DNA of 21,584 nt, taken from positions 113,910 to 135,493 of the IMG/VR virus record IMGVR_UViG_3300028837_003833, one strand, 5' to 3'. The translations under genes were made by a program, and so were the position numbers. This DNA comes from a virus. The notes beneath the pieces were generated by a model. It did no database searches, was not told the DNA's origin, and saw only the letters and a list, made by a program, of their open reading frames with translations. Each line of letters opens with the position of its first letter. Positions within the stretch are counted from its first letter, which is position 1. This document shows, one piece after another, positions 1,092 through 16,587 of this stretch.

Positions 1092-2386
1092 TTCGATCAA
1101 TTACATCAGCATTATCTAAAAAGGAGATAATTGAAGCTCCTAAATCAGGGATACCTGTTGTTTTTCTTGGGGGGAGTTGTAAGGATAATGATTGGCGTAA
1201 AGAGATTGAGGATGAGTTTGGAGAAGATTTATTTCTATTAGATCCTTTTGATAAAAAATATGATCCGGAGACAAATACACATAAAGAGTTAGCTGGTATA
1301 GTAAATTCAGATTATGTTATTTTTTATAGGGGTGGTGAACAATCTGCTCGGGAGAAAGAATTTCTTGATCTTATAGGTAGAAGAGATAATCTTATTAAGA
1401 CTTTTAGTACCATTAAAGATCTAAAAAAGTTTTTAAATAAAATAAGGAAGATTAAATTGGAAGATATAGGATCAAAAATAAGAAAATGTGCGGAGGATCT
1501 TTTAAAAGAATCTGTACCTTATTTAGATACTCCTATGGTAAAAGGAGATTATTCTGGTATTGATCTTCGTTTTGAAAAGCTCGATATTGATTCTATTTAT
1601 AAAGTGGTACAAGATATTTTAAATGGTGAGACTATTAAGATACCTAAGTTCCGGAATAATACTACTATTTTACAGGAATTTAATATAAATGATCTTGGTC
1701 AAGATAAAAAAATACTTGATTTTTTAAGACTCTACACTAAGGATAAAATAGAAAAACAATATAGAAATCGTGATCCTGAGTCTATTCTTTTTACTTATAA
1801 CGATAGGACTAATACATATAAAGATATAAGAGTTAATAAGCCTGAGTTAGCGATGGCTCGTGTAGCTAAAAAGGGTGCTACTTATAGTAGGTCTTGTGTT
1901 ATGATTAATCTTCCTGAGAACCTTTCTAAAGAGATAATGGAATGGGGAAGAAAAAATGTACAAGATGATAAGCTCTATACTGAAGAAGATTCTCAAGGTA
2001 GAGAAGATACTATACATGTTACATTGTTTTATGGAATAACAAGTAATGATCCGGATAAAACAGCTAAACTACTTTCAAAGGTCAAACCTTTTGAAATAAG
2101 ATTAGGGCTCATAAATGCTTTTAAGAATGATAATAACTATGATGTTCTTAAAATAGAGGTAGAATCTTCTGAATTAGAGAAACTTCATTATGAGATTTCT
2201 GATAAAATTGAAAATACTAATGATTTTGCTACTTATGAGCCTCATGTAACGATTCTTTATGCTAAAAAAGATTCTATAAATAATCTTATAGGTGATGAAT
2301 CCTTTAAGGGAAAAATTTTTAAATCTGATGATATAGTGTTTTCTGGTAGTGACAAGAATGAAACCAAGTTAAATCTTGGTAAATAA
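1088..2386 (+). CDS. Fusion: nucleoside 2-deoxyribosyltransferase-like domain + unknown middle domain + 2H phosphoesterase (T4 57B/Acb1-like)
   Basis: N-terminal VFLGGSC..DWR...LDPF...E....SDYVIFY...S..E fits the Nuc_deoxyri_tr2/NDT-like pattern. The C-terminal domain has two HxT motifs (HVTLFYG at 2015; PHVTILY at 2243) with YDVLKIEV between them, typical of phage 2H phosphoesterases. Confidence 0.8.
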   Translation: MIRSITSALSKKEIIEAPKSGIPVVFLGGSCKDNDWRKEIEDEFGEDLFLLDPFDKKYDPETNTHKELAGIVNSDYVIFYRGGEQSAREKEFLDLIGRRDNLIKTFSTIKDLKKFLNKIRKIKLEDIGSKIRKCAEDLLKESVPYLDTPMVKGDYSGIDLRFEKLDIDSIYKVVQDILNGETIKIPKFRNNTTILQEFNINDLGQDKKILDFLRLYTKDKIEKQYRNRDPESILFTYNDRTNTYKDIRVNKPELAMARVAKKGATYSRSCVMINLPENLSKEIMEWGRKNVQDDKLYTEEDSQGREDTIHVTLFYGITSNDPDKTAKLLSKVKPFEIRLGLINAFKNDNNYDVLKIEVESSELEKLHYEISDKIENTNDFATYEPHVTILYAKKDSINNLIGDESFKGKIFKSDDIVFSGSDKNETKLNLGK

Positions 2387-2429
2387 TATATAAATTATAT
2401 CCTAATAACATTCATAAGGAGATGAAAAT

Positions 2430-3731
2430 ATGTTAGCGTTGAAAGAGTATAAGGCGATTCAAGATTTTTCTTTAAATCTTGGTGATGGGAAAAATGTTAC
2501 TTATGTAAAACGTGGTGACTTTTTGAAGTTTGATGGTTTAAATGTAACTTTTCGTGGTGAGAGTGGAGCTGCACGTTCATTATCTAAAGTTATAGGTGAG
2601 TGGATTATTCCTATAGGTAAAAAAGTTGCTGAGATTAAAGTACTGCCTTCAAAAAGACTTGCACGTCCTCCTCGGAATGCTACTGCAGGAAAAGTTATTG
2701 AGCACAGTGATTATACTTCTGATCCTGATGTTGGTATCATAAATCCCCCAAGCGATTCAGTAGAGACATTATTAAAGAGTTATGAACGGACTCCTCCTAC
2801 TAAACTTGTTAATGGTAAGAGAGAAGTTACCAGTAATCTAGATGATATCAAAAAAGAAGTTACTATTATCCACGAAGAAAACAATATCGTAAGAAAAGTC
2901 AGAGCTGTTGATGAAGGTACTACAAATAAAAATAGTGTAGAAATGGGTGACACTAAGAAAGTAAAAAGAACAGTGCTTTTTCCGGAAGGCGATATAGCTA
3001 AAAAGACAAATTATTCAGGTAAAAAAGCAGAGACTACTGAAAGAAAAAAGTTAAAAATTGACTATGAAGCTTCAGGTGTTGAGGTTCGTAAAGTTTCTAC
3101 TAATAAAACTCCTGTAGTAAAGACTGCTGCAAAGACTGAAGTATTTGAGAATGAAATTGATGTCGGTGAAGCATCTTATCCTGCTACTCAAACGACTGAT
3201 GTTGGATCAAGTACTCAGGCACAGATTGAAAGTAATAAAACTCCAGCTAAAAAATCTTCGACTAAAAAAGCTCCAACTAAAAAAGCTCCAACTAAAAAAG
3301 CTCCAACTAAAAAAGTTGCAGCAAAGAAAGCTTCTGTAGCAAAGAAAGCTTCTGTAGCAAAAAGACCTTTATCTACAGCTCCTACAGTAATTAAGGGTCC
3401 TGTGGTAGATTCTGATGGTCAAGAAGCTATAGTAATAAGTAAAGTGAAACGTGCTGATGCTTCTCGCGTAGAATCTACAGATGGTATTGTTTCTAAAGTG
3501 ACCATAGGTGCTTCGGGAGATATGGATGTTGGTGAGGTTCAATTTTCATCTAACAGTGATTTTGAAGAACCAGGGGTAACTATCAGTAGTAGTGAACAAA
3601 CTCCTCTCGATATGATCGATCCTAGTATTCTTAATGAAGATGTAGAAATAGTTGAGGATTCTTCGGTTGATACGGGTGTTATTGCAGTTGATGATGATGT
3701 CGATCTTAATAATCTTTTATCGGATATATAA
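2430..3731 (+). CDS. Hypothetical low-complexity protein with histone-H1-like Lys/Ala/Pro repeats and acidic tail
   Basis: SD AAGGAG; PAKKSSTKKAPTKKAPTKKAPTKKVAAKKASVAKKASVAKR; acidic end DDDVDLNNLLSDI. Confidence 0.7.
   Translation: MLALKEYKAIQDFSLNLGDGKNVTYVKRGDFLKFDGLNVTFRGESGAARSLSKVIGEWIIPIGKKVAEIKVLPSKRLARPPRNATAGKVIEHSDYTSDPDVGIINPPSDSVETLLKSYERTPPTKLVNGKREVTSNLDDIKKEVTIIHEENNIVRKVRAVDEGTTNKNSVEMGDTKKVKRTVLFPEGDIAKKTNYSGKKAETTERKKLKIDYEASGVEVRKVSTNKTPVVKTAAKTEVFENEIDVGEASYPATQTTDVGSSTQAQIESNKTPAKKSSTKKAPTKKAPTKKAPTKKVAAKKASVAKKASVAKRPLSTAPTVIKGPVVDSDGQEAIVISKVKRADASRVESTDGIVSKVTIGASGDMDVGEVQFSSNSDFEEPGVTISSSEQTPLDMIDPSILNEDVEIVEDSSVDTGVIAVDDDVDLNNLLSDI
3261..3361 (+). repeat. In-frame tandem repeats: 15-bp unit x3.7 then 18-bp unit x2.3
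   Basis: actaaaaaagctcca at 3261, 3276, 3291 (partial at 3306); gcaaagaaagcttctgta at 3321 and 3339; all exact copies. Confidence 0.95.
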
Positions 3732-3734
3732 AGA

Positions 3735-5324
3735 ATGAATCAGATGGTCAGAAATGTTATAGCACGATATTATGCGGATCCTCAAGATGCTCTTCGTCCT
3801 ATAGATAAAAAGACTTGGATGGAATATGTTGAGGAAAAAGTTAAAGGTATAGCTGCTGACCCTGATAATCCTGTTTATGATATGCTTAAAGGAAAGACGG
3901 AGTTAAATCCGTCTTTTCATACTACTAATCCATATAATAAAGATTGCCCTTCTAATAGTCCTAAGGATCAGGATGATTCTCCACCATTTGTAAGTGAACC
4001 TATTTATCCCTCGAATATAGTTACGATTAATAGACCCGATAATTATGGAGAGGGGCATAGTCTTCATGAGTGGTGGGATGTAAGGGAAGAGGATTGGACT
4101 GAAGATGAGCAGGAGCAACGTCCTGCTATGAGTCTTACTAATAAGTATTCTGCACAAACAGTTCCTATAGATTTGCTTTCACGAATTGTTATTTCTAGTG
4201 ATGATTTTTTTGATTTTATGATGAGAACTAAAGTAGCAGCTACTTTAGATGAAATCATTGCAAAAGATTTTCATTATAAAAATGATTTAAAAATGCAACG
4301 TGCTGATAGATGTCAAGTTATATGGGCTAATAAGAATAATCCCAATCAGTATGAAAGAGGATTATTTACTTTCAGGGTATCATCTCCAGGATCGAAAGAG
4401 GGTCCTCATAATGTTTATATGCAATTTTTAAGAGATGATAATAAACCTGCGCCTAAGTATGTAGATTATCCGGTACATATAGGCTGTACTTGTAAATCTT
4501 TCCTTTTTAGTGGTGCTCAGTATTATGCTGTTCAGGATGGTTATATGTATATGCCAGCTTTTAAACCTGATTTAATAGGCCCACGTTCTCAGAATCAGTA
4601 TACTATTTCAGTGAGTCCAAGATATCCTAAAGGCAAAAAAAATCCTGGAAGAGGATTAAATTCCAGGGTATGCAAGCATATACTTGCAGTTTTTGATGAG
4701 ATAAAAAATACTCCTATAGAAGTACATTATAAAAAATATCCGGTTACTTCTCCTCCATCTAAGATTATGAATAAGGATGTATGGAAAGATCTTATGAAAT
4801 TTCCTTTTACTGAAGATGAGGTTAAGAAGAGACTGACTAGTAGCTATCCAAAAGTACCTGCTTATTTTAATCGTGAAAGTGTTACTCCCGCAGTCATTGA
4901 TTGGTTTAATAATACTTGGTTCCCGAGAACTGATGAACAAAAGTTAAAGTCTTTAAAAGAATTTGCTATGTATCCTGAAAGAGTGTTCTTCATTCTCATT
5001 GAAGAAGCATATTTAAAGCGTAAACAAGGAGAACATATTTCTAAGAGACTTATAGATGAGGGTTATGATATGATGGCAGATATTGTTCAACCGGATAATG
5101 ACTCTAAACCCCAATCAATTCCTGAAAATGAGGATGAATCAACAGGTACAGGTAAGATTGATATACCAGGTACAAAACCTCCTGAAGATGTCGAAGAGGA
5201 AGAAACTAAGAAACCTATTACACTTAATTATCAGACTCCAGCTAAGAAAGTAAAGAGTCCAAGTAAAATGAAACGACCAGATAAGATTAAGACACCATTG
5301 ACGGTTCAACCAGCAATAAAATAA
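3735..5324 (+). CDS. SWIM-type zinc-finger protein
   Basis: IGCTCKSF (CxC at 4485) ... NPG...RVCKHILAV (CxH at 4671), preceded by beta-rich FTFRVSS...HNVYMQF; disordered N- and C-terminal extensions. Confidence 0.7.
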   Translation: MNQMVRNVIARYYADPQDALRPIDKKTWMEYVEEKVKGIAADPDNPVYDMLKGKTELNPSFHTTNPYNKDCPSNSPKDQDDSPPFVSEPIYPSNIVTINRPDNYGEGHSLHEWWDVREEDWTEDEQEQRPAMSLTNKYSAQTVPIDLLSRIVISSDDFFDFMMRTKVAATLDEIIAKDFHYKNDLKMQRADRCQVIWANKNNPNQYERGLFTFRVSSPGSKEGPHNVYMQFLRDDNKPAPKYVDYPVHIGCTCKSFLFSGAQYYAVQDGYMYMPAFKPDLIGPRSQNQYTISVSPRYPKGKKNPGRGLNSRVCKHILAVFDEIKNTPIEVHYKKYPVTSPPSKIMNKDVWKDLMKFPFTEDEVKKRLTSSYPKVPAYFNRESVTPAVIDWFNNTWFPRTDEQKLKSLKEFAMYPERVFFILIEEAYLKRKQGEHISKRLIDEGYDMMADIVQPDNDSKPQSIPENEDESTGTGKIDIPGTKPPEDVEEEETKKPITLNYQTPAKKVKSPSKMKRPDKIKTPLTVQPAIK

Positions 5325-7276: not shown

Positions 7277-8368
7277 TTAAACTTTATCCCAAAGATCTTT
7301 TAATATAGACTTATCTTTCTTATTAGGACTAAAACTTACCTCTAAATTATTCTCATAATCATTTAAAAGTAGCTGTCGTACCTGCCTTCTACAAGCACTC
7401 TCATCTTGGGGCTGTGTCTTGAATCTATCTATAAACTTATCCCTCTTATCCATAGGAGAAGTACTTAATAGATACTCCCTAAATTCATACCAAGTCTTAA
7501 ATTTTTCAGGTAATTTACTAGTACTAAAAACACTATCCTCACCCGCGTATATAGACGCGACATGAATACCAGATATTCTTTTTACCAGCTTACTAAATGT
7601 ATCAGGCTCATATACTTGAAGATCACCTAAAATCTTGAAACTCTTCTCGTGTATAAGATTACTCACCCGCATAGTCTTATAAAAATTTTTATTTGATCGA
7701 TACATCTTATCATACACGGCATTATAGGGAAGATCATTATCCGCTATGTATTTCCAAACGTCTCCTACTCCCCAATCATAAAGAGGATAAAATCTATAAG
7801 TATTTCTACCTGTAGTTTTGGTACTCCAATTAATATCCTTCCACCCTGGATTCTTGATAACTGACCTAAGCCTGTTTAAACTCTCCTCCGCCCGTAACCC
7901 TATAAAAAATGCTGTGTCAGGATTACTCTTCTCCATCCATTTAAAAAAACCATAAAACCTACTTGGATAACTAATGTCAATTGAATGTATAGCCAAAGGA
8001 TCCTTATCCCTTACCCAAATCTCCCCCTCATCCCAAGCATAAAACATACACTCTCTATAAGATGTAGTGTTAGTCATATACAATGGAACCTGATACCACA
8101 AAGGATCTACAAGATCATGACTCATCATTCTTCTTATAAGATCTACACTACTTTGATATTCAGCCTCTTGATCAAGAAAAAATACTTTTACTCTCCTATT
8201 TCTTCTTTCCGCTTCCCTTACAACAAGCCAATACAATGTTGTACTATCTTTACCACTACTAATAGAAACTATGATATCTTTAAAACTATCAAATACTATC
8301 GAAACCCTCTCCTGAGCTTTATGGAATACATTTTCTTCAAGGTATACCCGTTTAAGTTCTGGTAGCAT
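7277..8368 (-). CDS. ibrA: IbrA-like PAPS-reductase family (PP-loop) protein with DUF3440-like C-terminus
   Basis: VSISSGKDS PP-loop; FFLDQEAEY; IGLRAEESLNR; FYPLYDW...DVW; YNAVYDKMY; MRVS; EPDTFSKL..RI.G; LPEKFKTWYEF..YLL. Confidence 0.9.
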   Translation of the reverse strand: MLPELKRVYLEENVFHKAQERVSIVFDSFKDIIVSISSGKDSTTLYWLVVREAERRNRRVKVFFLDQEAEYQSSVDLIRRMMSHDLVDPLWYQVPLYMTNTTSYRECMFYAWDEGEIWVRDKDPLAIHSIDISYPSRFYGFFKWMEKSNPDTAFFIGLRAEESLNRLRSVIKNPGWKDINWSTKTTGRNTYRFYPLYDWGVGDVWKYIADNDLPYNAVYDKMYRSNKNFYKTMRVSNLIHEKSFKILGDLQVYEPDTFSKLVKRISGIHVASIYAGEDSVFSTSKLPEKFKTWYEFREYLLSTSPMDKRDKFIDRFKTQPQDESACRRQVRQLLLNDYENNLEVSFSPNKKDKSILKDLWDKV

Positions 8369-9194
8369 CCAGTAAAGTCCTTACAAACTCATTTACATTA
8401 TTTATATATTTGAAAAATTCCTTCTCTAATAAATCATCCACTTTTGCATCAGACACTACTAATGTCCGCTCACCAGATTTATATTGATCATATACTCTAA
8501 AAAGGTATGAAGAATTAAATCCTTTTTTAAGATCCGGTACCCTATCATTAATAAATTTTTTCAATTTTCTGGTTAAAATAATAGGGCTACCCTCTGTCTC
8601 AAATAACTGCTCCTTATATACCTGATAATCCTTTTTTATCTCTTCGGATAATTCTATTCTTTTCACGATAATATCATCATGAAATACCTCCTGCAGAGAA
8701 GTATCAGTAGCTACTGCCACTTTCTTAGCAAGCATGGAACAATCATATGGATTTACGTCCCCAATAACTTTAGCCCCCTGAAAAGCATAACAATGGGGAT
8801 ACCCTAATAAACTTTTATCAAAAAAACTCCAGAGAAAATAACACCAATAAACATCCCTTTTTGTTAAAAAAGGATGCTCCTCAACTACTAATTTATACCC
8901 CTTAAGAACAGTTTGATGCATATCAATGTTACGGTCCATTATATCGTTTAATCTAGGGTACTTTAATACAAAAAAATCATTTTCTGAGTTATCCATAAAC
9001 ATTGGTATATTTACAGGATCCATAGTTTTTTCTAAAGGTAAAAAAGTATAGTCAGGTAAACTATCTTTTATAATATCTATATTAGGGCACTTTTTACCAT
9101 AAACATAAAATTTACGTCCATAACCCTCGGAATACTTATTAATCTTATCAAGTTCATAGTTAAGATCGTCAGTTAAGATTACCCTACCCTTCAC
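8352..9194 (-). CDS. Hypothetical protein, probable degenerate SNF2-like ATPase lobe
   Basis: GTG at 9194 has SD GGGAGG-6 nt and overlaps the IbrB stop by 11 nt. YKLVVEEHPF...LWSFFDKSLLGYPHCYAF and IELSEEIKKDY..YKEQL resemble the SNF2 motif-III region and the helices after it; no Walker A or DEAH. Confidence 0.55.
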   Translation of the reverse strand: MKGRVILTDDLNYELDKINKYSEGYGRKFYVYGKKCPNIDIIKDSLPDYTFLPLEKTMDPVNIPMFMDNSENDFFVLKYPRLNDIMDRNIDMHQTVLKGYKLVVEEHPFLTKRDVYWCYFLWSFFDKSLLGYPHCYAFQGAKVIGDVNPYDCSMLAKKVAVATDTSLQEVFHDDIIVKRIELSEEIKKDYQVYKEQLFETEGSPIILTRKLKKFINDRVPDLKKGFNSSYLFRVYDQYKSGERTLVVSDAKVDDLLEKEFFKYINNVNEFVRTLLDATRT

Positions 9195-10836
9195 TATATA
9201 CCTCCCAGGATTTACTATACTCATTATTAGCCAATATTTTTGCACAACCAATTTGCTGACGTAATCTTAACAACTCTTCACCTTCCATACCTAAATGATT
9301 GGCTATTTGTTCATCTGACCAGCCTTGCTCATATAGATCTTTAACAATAACCCCCATCAAATCCACCTGATGCCTTCCACGAGCTCTGTTATGACGAATA
9401 GTCGAAGCCATTCTATCTTTTATGGATTTATCAAGAACAACAACAGGAACTTTACTACATTTAAAATGATTTATCAATACAGTATACCTGTGAAAGCCAT
9501 CAATGACTATAAATTTATCCTGCTCAGGATCATGATAAACTACTATAGGCTGGGTAACACCATCTTCTTCTATGCTGTGTATAAGTAATTCCATTTCAGG
9601 AGCTGCTACTTTATTAGGATTATACCCATTACTTTGCACCTTAGATGCATCTACTAACTTTACAGACATACAAGGGAATTTTAATGAATCCACCATAACA
9701 CGCTTTCTCTTAGGCTCAATACCTAATGACCTACGTATACCCGCTATAGTATTTCTCCCAAAGCCGTACTTTTCACCAATTTCTACATCTGTCATACCAC
9801 TCTTAAAATGCTCCTTAAGAACATCCTCCAGGGGCATTTTCCTAATATTTATCTTTGTCTTTAAACTACCTTCTTTTAATTTATTTTTTATTCCTTCTAT
9901 GTATAATTCTTTAGAATCTTTTATCGGGCACCCCAAATTTACTCTGTCTTCAACAAAAGAATCCCCCGAAAATCTTACTGGTATCTTAAGTTTATTACAT
10001 AAATCCAAATGATATGATACAATATCTTTTACTGTATACCTATCAGGAACCTTATCCCCAGTAATTTTATATCTCATGGAAGGTATTATATAAGGATCTA
10101 TAAGGTTGTAAAAATGATCCCTACTCTCAGACTTAATGTAGATATTATAATAACCCTTTTTTATATCATGATTCTGCAGTGTAGTCTTCAAACTAAATTT
10201 ATTTTCCAAAGTATCTCGTAAATTATTTCCCTCTTCTTTTGTAACATTTCCTACGCATAAGTATGCCCCATATTCACTGTACTTTCCATCATCCATATAC
10301 CAAAAAGCTAATCCTTCAGGATCTATATCCGCTATTATATCCTCAAACATATATTTCTTATGCTTACCATGAGAATAAAATCTCTCAAAGTATGGGATAA
10401 GATTGTCATGTCTATTTGTGTATACTTCAATGGCATTAACCTCTTTTTTGTAGTGGATGGAAGAAACATAAGAGTCTAAGCATTCCGCAATGTGGTAAGT
10501 ATATGGTAACTGACCCATACCATGTGTTACTCGGTAGTATTTTGGTTCCGACATACTAGCATCCCCTAATAATGTCCCAATAAGCATCTGGTGCATATGA
10601 GAAGATATAATAGGATTACTAATGCGGGTGTCGTTAAGTGGGGCCCTATAAACTATACCTAGGCACTTAATAATATGCTCTAATTGGTAGGACTTCAGAC
10701 CATAAGCGATACTAAGATCTTTAATAGTTAAGGTACCGCTTATAAGATGAGTCTTTATCTCTTCCTTAGAAAAAGTCCCATACTTATTATGAAGTATAAG
10801 ATCGGTACCTTTTTTTTCAGTAAAAAATGAGGGCAT
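9184..10836 (-). CDS. ibrB: HTH + LAGLIDADG endonuclease + HTH + IbrB (ParB/Srx-like) fusion
   Basis: Start moved to ATG 10836 (AGGA SD; the listed start runs through the terminator). LIGTLLGDAS and LAFWYMDDG...YIIPSMRYKI (LAGLIDADG_2 type, about 10063-10600); HTH GMTDVEIGEKYGFGRNTIAGIRRSLGI; IbrB from 9696: NGYNPNKVAAPEMELL..SIEEDG.TQPIV, IDGFHRY, RMASTIRHNRARG, GWSDEQIA..LGM. Confidence 0.88.
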   Translation of the reverse strand: MPSFFTEKKGTDLILHNKYGTFSKEEIKTHLISGTLTIKDLSIAYGLKSYQLEHIIKCLGIVYRAPLNDTRISNPIISSHMHQMLIGTLLGDASMSEPKYYRVTHGMGQLPYTYHIAECLDSYVSSIHYKKEVNAIEVYTNRHDNLIPYFERFYSHGKHKKYMFEDIIADIDPEGLAFWYMDDGKYSEYGAYLCVGNVTKEEGNNLRDTLENKFSLKTTLQNHDIKKGYYNIYIKSESRDHFYNLIDPYIIPSMRYKITGDKVPDRYTVKDIVSYHLDLCNKLKIPVRFSGDSFVEDRVNLGCPIKDSKELYIEGIKNKLKEGSLKTKINIRKMPLEDVLKEHFKSGMTDVEIGEKYGFGRNTIAGIRRSLGIEPKRKRVMVDSLKFPCMSVKLVDASKVQSNGYNPNKVAAPEMELLIHSIEEDGVTQPIVVYHDPEQDKFIVIDGFHRYTVLINHFKCSKVPVVVLDKSIKDRMASTIRHNRARGRHQVDLMGVIVKDLYEQGWSDEQIANHLGMEGEELLRLRQQIGCAKILANNEYSKSWEVYSEG

Positions 10837-10898: not shown

Positions 10899-10936
10899 AA
10901 ATAAAAAGGGCATGTGTTTTAAAACACACGCCCTTT
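10899..10936 (-). terminator. Rho-independent terminator after the MCP gene
   Basis: Minus strand AAAGGGCGTGTGTT-TTAA-AACACATGCCCTTT followed by TTATTT. The single mismatch is a G-U pair on the minus-strand transcript. Confidence 0.85.
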
Positions 10937-10960
10937 AAAACCAACTAATTAAGATGCTAT

Positions 10961-11845
10961 TTAACGAGCAATCTTGACTCTGGTAATAGCGAGAGGATTG
11001 TGACATCCAATGCCGAGATTCTCGAACACTGAGAACCCTATACGTCTTGCTTTAGGATCATCAGCACTAAGAACAGTTAATTCAGTTCTTACAGGGATAC
11101 GACCAAAGAACTCTGGCTCTGCACAAACATATGCATATCCAGGAGAAACTTTTCTGCTAACGATGAATTGAGCACCCCAAGCAGTAGCAAGAAGACCACT
11201 CTTGAGCAATGTTCCCTGAGTCTCGATATCAAGAACATCACGTCCCCATTTCCTGATGTCTGCGAAATCCAGAGCATTCATGAAAACACGAGCAACACGA
11301 AGATCATGAGTCTCAATACGTGCGAAAGCATCAATAAGATTTGAAGGTGTAAGAGGAGCAACAGCATTAACCTGTGCGTTAACGTATGCGCTTCCTAAGT
11401 TATCAAAACCAAACTGAGAAACAGCATCCATAACATCAAATGCACGTGCATCTTCAGCAGCTTGAATCTGTGCTTTTGCAAGATCTTGTGCTCTCTCAAT
11501 GAGGTCAAAACGACGCTCTTTGATCTGAGTCAATGGAAGTTCAGGGTTTGATGCAATTTCGAAAAGAGGGAAAATCACACGGCGAGGTTTTGTGATCGCC
11601 AAAATGTTTTCACCTTCTTCGCCAACAACAAAAGCTGTCACATTTGGGTCTTTGTCGTAAATTGGCAGCGCACCATCAGGGAGCTGTTCTACGAGGAAAG
11701 CCTTACGTGCAACAGATGTATAATCTCTACGAAGACGTAGAGGCTGAATCATTGAAGCAGCAAGCTTCGCACGACCAGCAGCAGTTTTGATGTACTCACC
11801 AATGATCTGTTGTTTCAGTTCATTGGAAATAGTTCCATTCTCCAT
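10961..11845 (-). CDS. Major capsid protein (HK97 fold, Bxz1/encapsulin-like family)
   Basis: LAASMIQPLRLRRDY..VARK..LVEQLPDGALPIYD, RRVIFPLFEIASNP, IERAQD...IQAAED, GFSVFENLGIG..NP; strong SD AGGAGG; last gene of the head module; no delta domain. Confidence 0.92.
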   Translation of the reverse strand: MENGTISNELKQQIIGEYIKTAAGRAKLAASMIQPLRLRRDYTSVARKAFLVEQLPDGALPIYDKDPNVTAFVVGEEGENILAITKPRRVIFPLFEIASNPELPLTQIKERRFDLIERAQDLAKAQIQAAEDARAFDVMDAVSQFGFDNLGSAYVNAQVNAVAPLTPSNLIDAFARIETHDLRVARVFMNALDFADIRKWGRDVLDIETQGTLLKSGLLATAWGAQFIVSRKVSPGYAYVCAEPEFFGRIPVRTELTVLSADDPKARRIGFSVFENLGIGCHNPLAITRVKIAR

Positions 11846-13707: not shown

Positions 13708-16587
13708 TTATTCAAAGTGTGATAAAATCTTAGCCCATGAAGCTAACTTTTTATTTTCGTAACGACTCGGTTTACGCCCTATTTCCACAATGATATCAGT
13801 AAAAAAAGGCACCATACCTCTTGATCCAATTTTGACTCTTGATAATGTTTTAACTGCATCTACACCCACTGGATTATTTGAAGTACTTTTATCAATAAAA
13901 TGCAAAATCCCTAAAACATCATCACGATTATAGCCATATTTTTTAAACTGATTCCAATTTTTTATACTAGAAAGAATCATAAGACCATTATATAAACGAT
14001 CGTTCTTTATGCTCTTTGCTGAGGCTAAAACTTTATTAAAACTAGCAGATTTAGCTACTAAATTATCATTAGTAGAAGTCTCAAGTTCACTTGGTCGCTG
14101 ACTATCTTCACCTTGTTGTTTAGCTTGCTCCTTCAAGATCTCTCTTCGGATTTGATTTAAAAGTTGCCTCTTTACCATATCTTTAACTTCTGTGACAGTA
14201 GCATCCTCTTTTGGTTCCTCTATCTGAGGCTCTGGAGGAGCTGCAGGAGCACCATCCAAACTACCGCCACCTTCTGCCGGAGGTGCTGCACCTTCTGCTG
14301 GAGGAGCACCTAAGGAATCAGCAGGAGCCTCTCCCTCTGTAGGAGGAGTATCTACTTCAAGAGGTTTATCAGATTCAGGAGGAGCTTCTGGAAAACTAAA
14401 ATCATCTTTTGGAGGTTCAGCAGGAGGAGCATCACCTTCAGCAGCTTCAATCTCATTTACCAATTCTGTTGCAGCTTTTAATGCTGCAGACTTTAGATAC
14501 ATACCAGGCATATACTTAAAACCAGGCATAGCAACAGCCTTTTGAAATTTTTCAGAAAGATCTTTATCTCCAGTTGGTAAAACCTTATAGAGTACAGCTC
14601 CCTCAAAAGCAGGTTTACGCACCCAACTAGCATCTATGAACTTGCAACTATCAGGTTTATCAGAGCTACCACAGAGTTCAGCAATTATTCTTTTTACGCC
14701 ATTTTTATCATAGAAATAATTACCTTTAAAGTACTTTACATGTTTACAGGATTGTGACTCATCTTCTGCAATACGACCACACTGTGTGCATATTGAAAAT
14801 TGAATTAAACAACCCATACTGACAGCACTGTATTCCCCTGATTGAATCTTCTCCACTAAATCAGTATGCTTCTTGTTTGTAGCTATAAGAATATCAACAT
14901 ACATTGTAATAAGGTCTTCACCATTAATTCCTTTTGCAAAAGGCACTTCTCTTAACGCTACATCAATAATTTTTCCTTTTGATAATTCAGGGATCTGAAC
15001 ATGTTCACAGTTATGAACCACCACCCCTTCAGCTATGTATGAGTTATCATTATCTACTTCAATGTTATAAACTTCACAAGAGACATTACTTTCTTTCACC
15101 GAGTTTATCTTAGATACTATCCATTTTCCTTCTTCATTTTCAAAAGCATGGGTTATTTTCTTAGATTGTCTACTTGCTATTTTTATATCCCCATATCCAA
15201 CTATATCATTTAACTTTTTAGAATCTCTTGTTGAGAATCTCAATAAATAACCCGGTCTCGATTTTTTTCCTGTTAAAGGATCAGTAAATATTTCAAAACC
15301 ATCTGCTATCTCACAATCGGAATACCTTGGTAAGACCCCAACTTCCCTATATGTAGGAAGCATACCTAAACGCCAAGATACCCAATTAAACTGCTGTATG
15401 ATATCTTTTGATTTTAATTCTAAAGAATATCCCCTTGAAATGTACTCACCACACCCATCCCCATTAAGACAAGACTTAAGTATAATGGCTTGTAGCTTCT
15501 TTGGTAACCACATTGCTTCTTCAGGCATTTTTTTTGCCCAAGAATATTTACCGCACCATTTCTTAAAAAATTTAGCTATATCAGCATTACTAATAGAAAG
15601 CATATAAGATCCGGACTGGGACTCGTATATCCTTGGTAGACAATCCGCTCTAAATGTATCCCCAAATTCTTTAATTAATAGATCTTTAAGTCTTTCCGCC
15701 ACATCAATTTCATCATTACCAAGAGCAAAGGACACCCCAGATTCTTCATCTGAAGATTTATTTTTATTATCATAAAAACCTTCAGCAAGAAACCACCCTA
15801 TTAATTCTGCCCTATTCTCATTTATCTCACTGTTAGATATTTCTACAGCGGATACCGGGTGTGTGAAAAAATCCCTATCAGGATTTATACTATTAGCCTC
15901 TACCCAATTTGGGGTTAAGCCCTCTGGAAAAACCTCACCAGAAGATCTATGTACACCAACAGAAAAACCTGTCCAAGTATCTAATAAACAAAAATTTGCT
16001 TCTTTATCAAATAAATTAGGACGCCCTGTTTTTGGGCAAGTTTCACGGGCATGGTATATCCAAAAAGGATGTTCTTTAGTAACAAACATATTTCTTGATA
16101 GGATATTTAACCCAGACACCTCTACTAAGTTATTTGCTTTATGTCTAAATGTCTTTGTGACATTACCTATCTCACCTTTTCTATTTATTACCCTATCACC
16201 TTCTTTTATATCCTGAATAGGCTTATAGGTACCATCTGACATAAGTACACGGGTACCAGCAGCAAAACAAAAGTTATCTGCACCAAGAAAACTTTTTGAA
16301 GCTATCTTGAGAAGATTACGTTCCCAGCTATCACCATTATTATTTACAAAAATTGAGTAATCAGGTTTGATCAAATAGTTACTTTTAGGATTGGATGGAT
16401 CGGCTAAATCAGTATCTACTGATGCCATAATCGTGGTATGAGAAAGTAACCATTTTGAAGGATCAAACTGGGCTATTACTTCTTTTGCTACTTTTAAACG
16501 ACCTTTAGGAACAACATTGTCGACCCATTTACCTGGGCAGACAACCTTATTCACTACAGCAGCATGTCCAAACTTAAGCATTGCCAT
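13708..16587 (-). CDS. Prohead (maturation) protease precursor with intein
   Basis: Exteins: NNNGDSW...FLGADNF|CEH...KGKIID (His), KIQSGEYSAVSMGC (Ser), CTQC...CKH Zn site, ASWVRKPAF; then a Pro/Ala/Glu linker and a helical C-terminal domain. The spliced product is 539 aa. Confidence 0.88.
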   Translation of the reverse strand: MAMLKFGHAAVVNKVVCPGKWVDNVVPKGRLKVAKEVIAQFDPSKWLLSHTTIMASVDTDLADPSNPKSNYLIKPDYSIFVNNNGDSWERNLLKIASKSFLGADNFCFAAGTRVLMSDGTYKPIQDIKEGDRVINRKGEIGNVTKTFRHKANNLVEVSGLNILSRNMFVTKEHPFWIYHARETCPKTGRPNLFDKEANFCLLDTWTGFSVGVHRSSGEVFPEGLTPNWVEANSINPDRDFFTHPVSAVEISNSEINENRAELIGWFLAEGFYDNKNKSSDEESGVSFALGNDEIDVAERLKDLLIKEFGDTFRADCLPRIYESQSGSYMLSISNADIAKFFKKWCGKYSWAKKMPEEAMWLPKKLQAIILKSCLNGDGCGEYISRGYSLELKSKDIIQQFNWVSWRLGMLPTYREVGVLPRYSDCEIADGFEIFTDPLTGKKSRPGYLLRFSTRDSKKLNDIVGYGDIKIASRQSKKITHAFENEEGKWIVSKINSVKESNVSCEVYNIEVDNDNSYIAEGVVVHNCEHVQIPELSKGKIIDVALREVPFAKGINGEDLITMYVDILIATNKKHTDLVEKIQSGEYSAVSMGCLIQFSICTQCGRIAEDESQSCKHVKYFKGNYFYDKNGVKRIIAELCGSSDKPDSCKFIDASWVRKPAFEGAVLYKVLPTGDKDLSEKFQKAVAMPGFKYMPGMYLKSAALKAATELVNEIEAAEGDAPPAEPPKDDFSFPEAPPESDKPLEVDTPPTEGEAPADSLGAPPAEGAAPPAEGGGSLDGAPAAPPEPQIEEPKEDATVTEVKDMVKRQLLNQIRREILKEQAKQQGEDSQRPSELETSTNDNLVAKSASFNKVLASAKSIKNDRLYNGLMILSSIKNWNQFKKYGYNRDDVLGILHFIDKSTSNNPVGVDAVKTLSRVKIGSRGMVPFFTDIIVEIGRKPSRYENKKLASWAKILSHFE
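15010..16269 (-). mobile_element. Intein (420 aa) with LAGLIDADG homing endonuclease
   Basis: Block A CFAAGTRVLMSDG; block B VTKEHPF; block C LIGWFLAEG; block E SCLNGDG; blocks F/G VYNIEVDNDNSYIAEGVVVHN; +1 residue Cys. Confidence 0.95.

Follow-up and report, generated by a model that had tools for sequence, protein, structure and literature searches.

We describe a three-gene phage cassette in which the gene pair ibrA and ibrB is extended in two ways: ibrB is fused in frame behind a LAGLIDADG endonuclease (gene 1), and a gene for a shortened SNF2-fold protein without the motor motifs (gene 2) lies between ibrB and ibrA (gene 3), giving the order B-S-A. The cassette occupies positions 7277-10836 on the minus strand of a 21,584-nt stretch of viral DNA (IMG/VR record IMGVR_UViG_3300028837_003833, positions 113,910-135,493), which is called the window here and whose numbering is used for all coordinates. 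The window is the final 21.6 kb of a 135.5-kb virus record with a CheckV completeness of 29%, so the genome of this phage is very large. Few gene pairs without known biochemistry are, to our knowledge, as widespread in phages and prophages as IbrA/IbrB. The pair and its association with SNF2 genes were known before; what is new is a defined pseudo-SNF2 family strictly coupled to IbrA, a conserved LAGLIDADG-IbrB fusion, and the sharing of one genomic slot with Mom and DNA-methylase cassettes. We read the whole, with somewhat less than an even chance of being right, as an accessory cassette that is mobile, led by an endonuclease, and carries a cargo acting on double-stranded DNA (dsDNA), most likely through a PP-loop-driven covalent modification, with the dead SNF2 protein as a DNA-binding or scaffold partner.

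The cassette proteins were searched against Pfam, PHROG and NCBIfam. A first-pass annotation of the window had named gene 3 as ibrA, a PAPS-reductase/PP-loop protein, and the searches agree: the product exceeds the Pfam cut-offs of both PAPS_reduct (PF01507; 58.5 bits against 22.5) and DUF3440 (PF11922; 48.0 bits against 25), matches phrog_2302 (E 6e-84), and has an intact PP-loop in which residues S35, S37, G39, K40, D41 and S42 are invariant among 11 homologues. The same alignment of 11 homologues contains no invariant cysteine. The fold search that the annotation had called for returned PAPS reductase, FAD synthase, CysD, TtuA and TilS as Foldseek matches of the IbrA model. Weak local matches to DndC and BrxP models were also found (PADLOC DndC, E 1e-8), and against the DndC equivalog TIGR03183 the protein scored 28 bits, where the cut-off is 290. 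Given the invariant PP-loop and these fold matches, IbrA is likely to act by adenylation or adenylyl transfer. A DndC-like sulfur relay is not likely, because no cysteine is invariant in the IbrA homologues, the DndC score is far too low, and no cysteine desulfurase (Aminotran_5) was found in the 135 kb of the record (about 29% of a complete genome); the operon holds no DndD- or DndE-like gene. IbrA is commonly mislabelled as a sulfur-metabolism gene. One fetched relative (L031:7799-10168) encodes a 789-aa IbrA homologue with a true intein (Intein_splicing plus LAGLIDADG_3) directly after the GKDS of the PP-loop; IbrA is an unusual host for such an element, and its position is a sign that the motif is essential.

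Gene 2 had been described as a degenerate SNF2 gene, and fold comparison bears this out, although its protein has no match in Pfam, PHROG or NCBIfam, with neither PF00176 nor PF00271 appearing at E values up to 1. Its homologues of about 280 aa, of which 26 were found, come from metagenomes only; a megablast search with the cassette and a tblastn search with the gene 2 protein against 50,697 phage records gave no match. An AlphaFold2 model built from the homologue alignment reached a pLDDT of 92, and Foldseek with this model, a search also proposed in the annotation, returned SNF2-family ATPases almost throughout. In an exhaustive structure alignment against 48,161 chains, the top matches were CSB, SWR1, a vaccinia enzyme, Rad26, Chd1, INO80, ISW1, Snf2 and ZorD; the model aligned to SNF2 ATPases over about 260 of its 280 residues with Z scores of 11-13.6 and an rmsd of 3.9-4.7. 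By hhalign, the family profile matched a phage SNF2 protein that carries both PF00176 and PF00271 (L004; 97%, E 4e-11). The profile retrieved nothing meaningful from the PDB sequences; the link to SNF2 came from the fold search and from hhalign.

The residues on which an SNF2 motor depends have been replaced in this protein. At the P-loop position it reads LTDDLNYE; in the hhalign alignment with the L004 protein, motif II corresponds to DFFVLKYPR, with DE replaced by LK, and motif III to KLVVEEHPF where LTGTP is expected. The chain terminates about 30 residues past the strand and helix that we read as the equivalent of motif IV. An all-against-all HMM search over 1.84 billion proteins yielded 67 representatives of the family, 159-409 aa long and mostly 240-410 aa, none of them a full SNF2 protein; the 280-aa forms lack most of lobe 2, which members of 340-410 aa keep in part. 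A GxGK[ST]-like motif occurs in one of 62 family members, and D[DE] at the motif II position in none of the 62. Judged by model and motifs together, gene 2 encodes an SNF2-derived pseudo-ATPase that cannot serve as a motor. A predicted complex of IbrA with the gene 2 protein scored 0.27, with the mark at 0.32, and counts neither for nor against binding. Gp102 of Mycobacterium phage Gaia, an 'exonuclease/helicase' encoded upstream of IbrA, was considered as a relative of gene 2 and dismissed, since hhalign found the two unrelated. Outside the window, the same record (G000:C1, about 24245-26164; L014, L016, L017) contains a 1430-aa frame whose SNF2-rel_dom is interrupted by LAGLIDADG_2; this is probably a true SNF2 helicase with an intein, encoded by the same phage.

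The coupling of this family to IbrA was surveyed in ten contexts, each reached through a dead-SNF2 family protein, with members ranging from 76% identity to the gene 2 protein down to a profile E value of about 1e-12. In all ten, the dead-SNF2 gene stands directly upstream of a PAPS_reduct plus DUF3440 gene, usually overlapping it, and in eight a ParB gene is close by, upstream or downstream; none is annotated in the other two. The co-occurrence of the three functions, for which the annotation had suggested a synteny survey, is thus conserved. Among the loci fetched as contexts of homologous proteins or as head-gene relatives (L003-L059), the same arrangement of dead SNF2 directly upstream of IbrA was met by other routes in L024-27, L031-34, L037 and L042. 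L004, L011 and L012 each have a true SNF2 gene in the vicinity. Flavobacterium phage FCV-1 has a 403-aa SNF2 protein (gp07; GSGKT, DES) encoded directly upstream of a ParB-IbrA pair, and Streptococcus phage PY7 a 389-aa SNF2 protein encoded directly upstream of IbrA, both above the PF00176 cut-off. These active short SNF2 genes beside ParB and IbrA genes suggest that the trio of the window is a derived form of a widespread SNF2-IbrA-IbrB phage module. The loss of the motor in a family without annotation that has nonetheless remained strictly coupled to IbrA speaks for a role in structure or DNA binding.

Several neighbours of these cassettes deserve mention. The most distant cassette of the 280-aa type has a GNAT acetyltransferase gene between ParB and dead SNF2 (L003:4576-5004), which may hint at acyl-transfer chemistry. 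Genes of counter-defence type are found near others. One is an AcrVA2-like gene, which lies with two Csf3 (type IV CRISPR) genes less than 4 kb upstream of a dead-SNF2/IbrA pair (L013:2608-3636 and 1-1343). Another is in the window itself, at 1088-2386 on the plus strand, where the C-terminal part of the encoded 432-aa protein is 2H/RNA-ligase-like (phrog_755); relatives of it annotated, weakly, as 2_5_RNA_ligase2/Acb1 recur a few kb from ibr cassettes (L008:7097-8437, L009:12037-12846).

Gene 1 joins two kinds of protein in a single 550-aa frame, as the annotation had stated for the in-frame fusion of LAGLIDADG to IbrB. Besides the LAGLIDADG_2 core, which is far above its cut-off, the product has a ParB_N match at residues 392-475 (30.8 bits against a cut-off of 26.3), a match to phrog_2159 at residues 377-547 (E 6e-62), and a further weak helix-turn-helix (HTH) signal at residues 500-516. 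Both LAGLIDADG motifs, GTLLGDA and WYMDDGK, retain their acidic residue and are kept in all six aligned relatives, and D182, D183, G184 and K185 are invariant in 28 family members. The DGFHR and RHNRARG blocks of the IbrB part are near-invariant in the aligned relatives. This part is 51-58% identical to very many cupin-ParB proteins, of which those examined pair with IbrA. The nuclease part was also considered as an intein and this was rejected, as it starts at residue 1 of the open reading frame (ORF), leaving no N-extein, and has no splicing blocks; gene 1 has no Intein_splicing match and no HN-Cys/Ser/Thr at the junction, where KRKRVM is followed by VDS.

The fusion is not an assembly accident, because a 99%-identical 550-aa protein representing seven member sequences and about 20 cluster representatives (546-560 aa, 47-99% identity) share the architecture of gene 1. 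It also occurs, at 547-553 aa, in L007-L010 and L032, and in L007-L010 the junction between the two parts contains no ATG. In L005 and L006, the LAGLIDADG and IbrB parts are two genes overlapping by 4 nt, with neither ORF lost, and the stand-alone 377-aa homologue in L005 stops exactly at the end of the HTH-like linker. The nonsynonymous rate (dN) of the LAGLIDADG part is about 1.2-1.4 times that of its neighbours and remains far lower than dS, and omega is roughly 0.1-0.3; synonymous sites are saturated, and of these comparisons only the ranking by dN was used. From this pattern, the fusion is old and under purifying selection, and the LAGLIDADG lineage of the window is inherited together with the operon. 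Stand-alone LAGLIDADG homologues of 314-437 aa are numerous, and in a quick tree of the LAGLIDADG part the fused forms do not make up a single clade.

The position of the cassette in the genome gives a further line of evidence. The closest relatives of the window are L059 and L052, whose major capsid protein (MCP) is 97% identical in amino acid sequence; their DNA homology to the window ends at the stop codon of the head gene and restarts about 10 kb further along the window, and neither has the cassette after the head gene. The cassette is thus located in a variable cargo region. Sister phages fill the same slot with a LAGLIDADG-HTH-Mom protein (700-714 aa) followed by an S-adenosylmethionine (SAM) methyltransferase, or with a 911-aa protein that combines LAGLIDADG with an N6_N4 DNA methylase. 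Fusions of LAGLIDADG to Mom or methylase were seen in L052:8083-10818 (911 aa), in L035:5001-7121 and 2153-4075, and in protein P0125. Among 42 distinct LAGLIDADG ORFs from the fetched loci, at least 11 have an N6_N4 methylase-like end; these counts are lower bounds, since the motif script missed some LAGLIDADG ORFs (e.g. the L035 Mom fusion). The N6_N4 fusions involve other LAGLIDADG lineages. Literature searches found no description of LAGLIDADG-methylase fusions or of LAGLIDADG fused to DNA-modifying enzymes. This natural 'allelic series' of ibr, Mom and DNA-methylase cassettes at one slot is the most direct comparative hint so far of DNA modification by IbrAB, and it allows sister phages that have the cassette to be matched with others that lack it.

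The LAGLIDADG genes of the slot vary in a way of their own. In loci with an MCP 73-97% identical, those after the head gene belong to several lineages, come in one to four copies and both orientations, or are absent, in loci with ibr as well as in loci without it. The nearest homologue of the LAGLIDADG part of gene 1 (45-47% identical) is stand-alone in L034, L042, L031 and L037, where it lies ahead of SNF2L-IbrA-ParB. By its behaviour in these loci, the family resembles a homing endonuclease. As LAGLIDADG genes occupy the slot with or without ibr, in different copy numbers and in both orientations, the role of the module may be to mobilise the cassette and not to direct its chemistry. A relative with an MCP 92% identical has the gene order S-A-B and shares only 54% identity in IbrA and 37% in ParB. 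The head proteins of the window and L007 are 96% identical, the cassette proteins 68-77%, with higher dS, which points to a history of the cassette different from that of the structural gene, through recombination or fast evolution. Other proteins in the variable region after the head gene include RRXRR and DUF7487 proteins (L042:3070-4998, L035:4069-4896). At 13708-16587 on the minus strand, the window contains a 959-aa frame with a short match to a head-maturation protease (residues 534-630) and unrelated phrog matches, consistent with an inserted element.

The features of the cassette are listed in Table 1. The three genes overlap and appear to be translationally coupled, as had been noted in the annotation, with overlaps of 11 nt between genes 1 and 2 (9184-9194) and of 17 nt between genes 2 and 3 (8352-8368), and each is preceded by a purine-rich Shine-Dalgarno-like site: AGGA 8 nt 5' of the ATG of gene 1, GGAGG 6 nt 5' of the GTG of gene 2, and AAGGA 9 nt 5' of the ATG of gene 3. 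The terminator placed by the annotation between the capsid operon and the cassette was found as well, reading as a hairpin and T-run from 10936 to 10905. Alternative TTG starts at 10944 and 9251 were rejected, as the homologues start at MPSF... and M.GKV..., respectively; TTG 10944 is also positioned just 5' (upstream) of the terminator hairpin.

Table 1. Position of the cassette genes, their domains and the adjoining features in the window
Feature	Position	Strand	Remarks
Gene 1 (LAGLIDADG-HTH-IbrB)	9184..10836	-	ATG, 550 aa, single frame
LAGLIDADG_2 nuclease core, residues 83-242	10111..10590	-	Pfam E 7.5e-27, 94.8 bits against a cut-off of 25
HTH-like linker, residues 338-380	9697..9825	-	weak GcrA and HTH matches; end of homing-endonuclease-type part
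IbrB part, residues 381-550	9184..9696	-	ParB/Srx N-domain (DGFHR, RHNRARG motifs) and C-terminal HTH
Gene 2 (SNF2-fold pseudo-ATPase)	8352..9194	-	GTG, 280 aa
Gene 3 (IbrA)	7277..8368	-	ATG, 363 aa
PP-loop SISSGKDS, residues 35-42	8243..8266	-	invariant in 11 IbrA homologues
Intrinsic terminator	10905..10936	-	14-pair stem with 6 GC pairs, then T-run; 3' of major head gene, upstream of cassette
Major head protein gene	10961-11845		phrog_2522, E 4e-51

Taken together, these observations lead us to propose how the cassette might work. IbrA, with its intact PP-loop, would be the catalytic subunit and would adenylate its substrate using ATP. IbrB, through its ParB/Srx domain and HTH, would bind DNA, probably in a nucleotide-dependent manner. 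The gene 2 protein would be what remains of the SNF2 motor of the module after the loss of ATP binding and of most of lobe 2, most likely retained as a partner of IbrA that binds DNA or acts as a scaffold. We propose that the cassette acts on dsDNA because every partner domain (ParB, HTH, the SNF2 fold and LAGLIDADG) is of a DNA-binding kind, and that it probably marks DNA chemically because sister phages carry DNA-modifying enzymes at the same slot. Its most likely job would be a covalent, non-sulfur modification of dsDNA that benefits the phage as counter-restriction. The neighbouring genes of counter-defence type speak for this reading, as does the accessory, rapidly changing nature of the cassette seen in the relative with an MCP 92% identical. 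The LAGLIDADG-HTH part would be a homing-type endonuclease, from a family that colonises the slot, and has long been fused to the first cargo gene, probably spreading the cassette among co-infecting sister phages. The annotation had proposed a DNA-modifying, anti-restriction complex working by adenylation or sulfur transfer; the alternation of the slot with Mom, a methyltransferase and a DNA methylase lends the modification part contextual support, but the sulfur branch found no support.

Several points weigh against this proposal. Literature searches found no biochemistry of IbrA or IbrB and none for DUF3440. Cargo slots hold many kinds of genes, and sharing one with Mom and methylases is therefore suggestive and not proof; the functional evidence as a whole is contextual. 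An old fusion, together with LAGLIDADG modules on three DNA-modification-type partners, fits a direct role of the endonuclease better than a purely selfish one; in the same direction, dN in the LAGLIDADG part runs in step with dN in its neighbours, with omega at roughly 0.1-0.3 (dS saturated), and four relatives have no ATG at the junction. With a genome about 29% complete, further partners are possible outside the 135 kb. The sole published phenotype of IbrAB is the co-activation of prophage eib genes (PMC4490671, PMC8813620).

This phenotype is what recommends a regulatory account, in which the cassette would act on transcription or the nucleoid, with IbrB binding phage or host DNA to counter silencing and IbrA serving as a nucleotide-processing cofactor. 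The HTH modules of the gene 1 protein would suit such a role. ParB-family proteins such as VirB are anti-silencers. We nevertheless consider this account improbable, as it leaves the invariant PP-loop enzyme, the SNF2 partner and the slot-sharing with Mom and DNA methylases unexplained, and a core regulator would not be expected to be missing after the head gene in the closest relatives. Marginally less probable again is that the cassette acts on nucleotides or nucleotide-derived immune signals, as a counter-defence pair that consumes or alters a small molecule. The best sequence matches to the ParB part include SerK and SbnI, small-molecule kinases with the ParB/Srx fold, the PAPS-reductase-fold enzymes include FAD synthase and CysD, 2H/Acb1-like genes are neighbours, and many IbrB relatives have a cupin of the ectoine-synthase type, which is a small-molecule-binding kind; but the accessory domains here, namely the SNF2 fold, HTH and LAGLIDADG, are all DNA binders, and other cassettes have an active SNF2 DNA motor. 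The least likely reading, which we would give hardly any weight, is phosphorothioation or another sulfur insertion of the Dnd/Ssp type. The weak DndC and BrxP matches (28 bits with TIGR03183; PADLOC DndC) and a ParB-like partner as in DndB speak for it, and the distance from the 290-bit DndC cut-off, the missing invariant cysteine in the 11 IbrA homologues, and the lack of a desulfurase in the 135 kb and of DndD/E-like genes in the operon speak against it.

A different question is whether the LAGLIDADG part is a working part of the enzyme. It could recognise a long DNA site and aim IbrB and IbrA there, or it could be the nuclease half of a restriction-modification-like pair in which the fused modifier protects its sites. 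The fusion persists with both catalytic motifs intact in the roughly 20 cluster representatives at 47-99% identity; the junctions without an ATG in L007-L010 imply that IbrB is apparently made only as a fusion there; in-frame fusions exist to three unrelated partners of DNA-modification type (IbrB, Mom and N6_N4 methylase); and the domain is under purifying selection. Against these stand the closest homologues, which are stand-alone in four loci and not tied to ParB, the split of the fusion in L005/L006 with both ORFs retained, the quick tree, in which the fused forms do not form one clade, a copy number and orientation that vary as in homing elements, and the fact that canonical IbrAB systems work without LAGLIDADG. 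On balance, we think this unlikely, though better placed than any account in the preceding paragraph. A broader form of the idea seems to us slightly more doubtful. In it, nuclease and modifier form one modular system within a single polypeptide in these large phages, led by a LAGLIDADG module that is joined to IbrB (with IbrA), to Mom or to a DNA methylase; the module would either aim the modifier at a long DNA site or cut the unmodified DNA of competitors while the modifier protects the sites of the phage itself. If it were true, IbrAB would represent a third kind of DNA modification with a new chemistry, and restriction-modification-like systems would gain a new class of nuclease in LAGLIDADG. 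Should IbrAB make a new DNA adduct, this would matter for anti-restriction in phages and for tools that mark DNA at specific sites.

Comparison with known systems places each part of the cassette. With the IbrA/IbrB pair of the E. coli ibrAB island and of phages (phrog_2302 with phrog_2159), it shares the PAPS_reduct and DUF3440 domains, the invariant PP-loop and the ParB/Srx plus HTH operon partner; its IbrB differs by the 380-aa LAGLIDADG-HTH extension, where the known proteins have no extension or a cupin. Like the SNF2-IbrA-IbrB cassettes of FCV-1 and PY7, which have an SNF2-type gene directly upstream of IbrA or of the ParB-IbrA pair, it includes an SNF2 gene, but one without Walker A, the DE of motif II and most of lobe 2, and in the order B-S-A. 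The gene 2 protein has the lobe 1 fold, the helical protrusions and the first strand-helix of lobe 2 in common with SNF2 ATPases (CSB/Rad26, SWR1, Chd1, INO80, SsoRad54, ZorD), and with a phage SNF2 protein its family shows profile homology and aligned positions of motifs II and III; in contrast to these ATPases, it has 280 aa instead of about 450 and no P-loop, no DExH and no lobe-2 region with motifs V/VI and the arginine fingers.

DndH offers a precedent for gene 2: its inactive N-terminal SWI2/SNF2 domain is an SNF2-derived module retained as a presumed DNA binder in a system with DndC (PAPS-reductase fold) and the ParB-like DndB (PMC10853773). Of the two lobes, however, DndH has just the second (C-terminal) one, and it is part of the restriction half of its system, whereas gene 2 keeps mainly the first lobe and is coupled to the PP-loop enzyme. 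The LAGLIDADG part resembles the free-standing phage homing endonucleases (T4 seg/mob type; LAGLIDADG_2, phrog_11023) in its double-motif core with flanking HTH modules, in its intergenic place beside a highly conserved gene, here the major head gene, and in its variable copy number, orientation and presence. It departs from them in being in frame with the downstream cargo gene over deep divergence, as its relatives are with Mom and DNA methylases. Phage Mu Mom and the orphan phage DNA methyltransferases, finally, appear in the same slot of sister phages behind the same kind of LAGLIDADG leader; they have no sequence or fold relation to IbrA or IbrB, and the likeness is one of position only.

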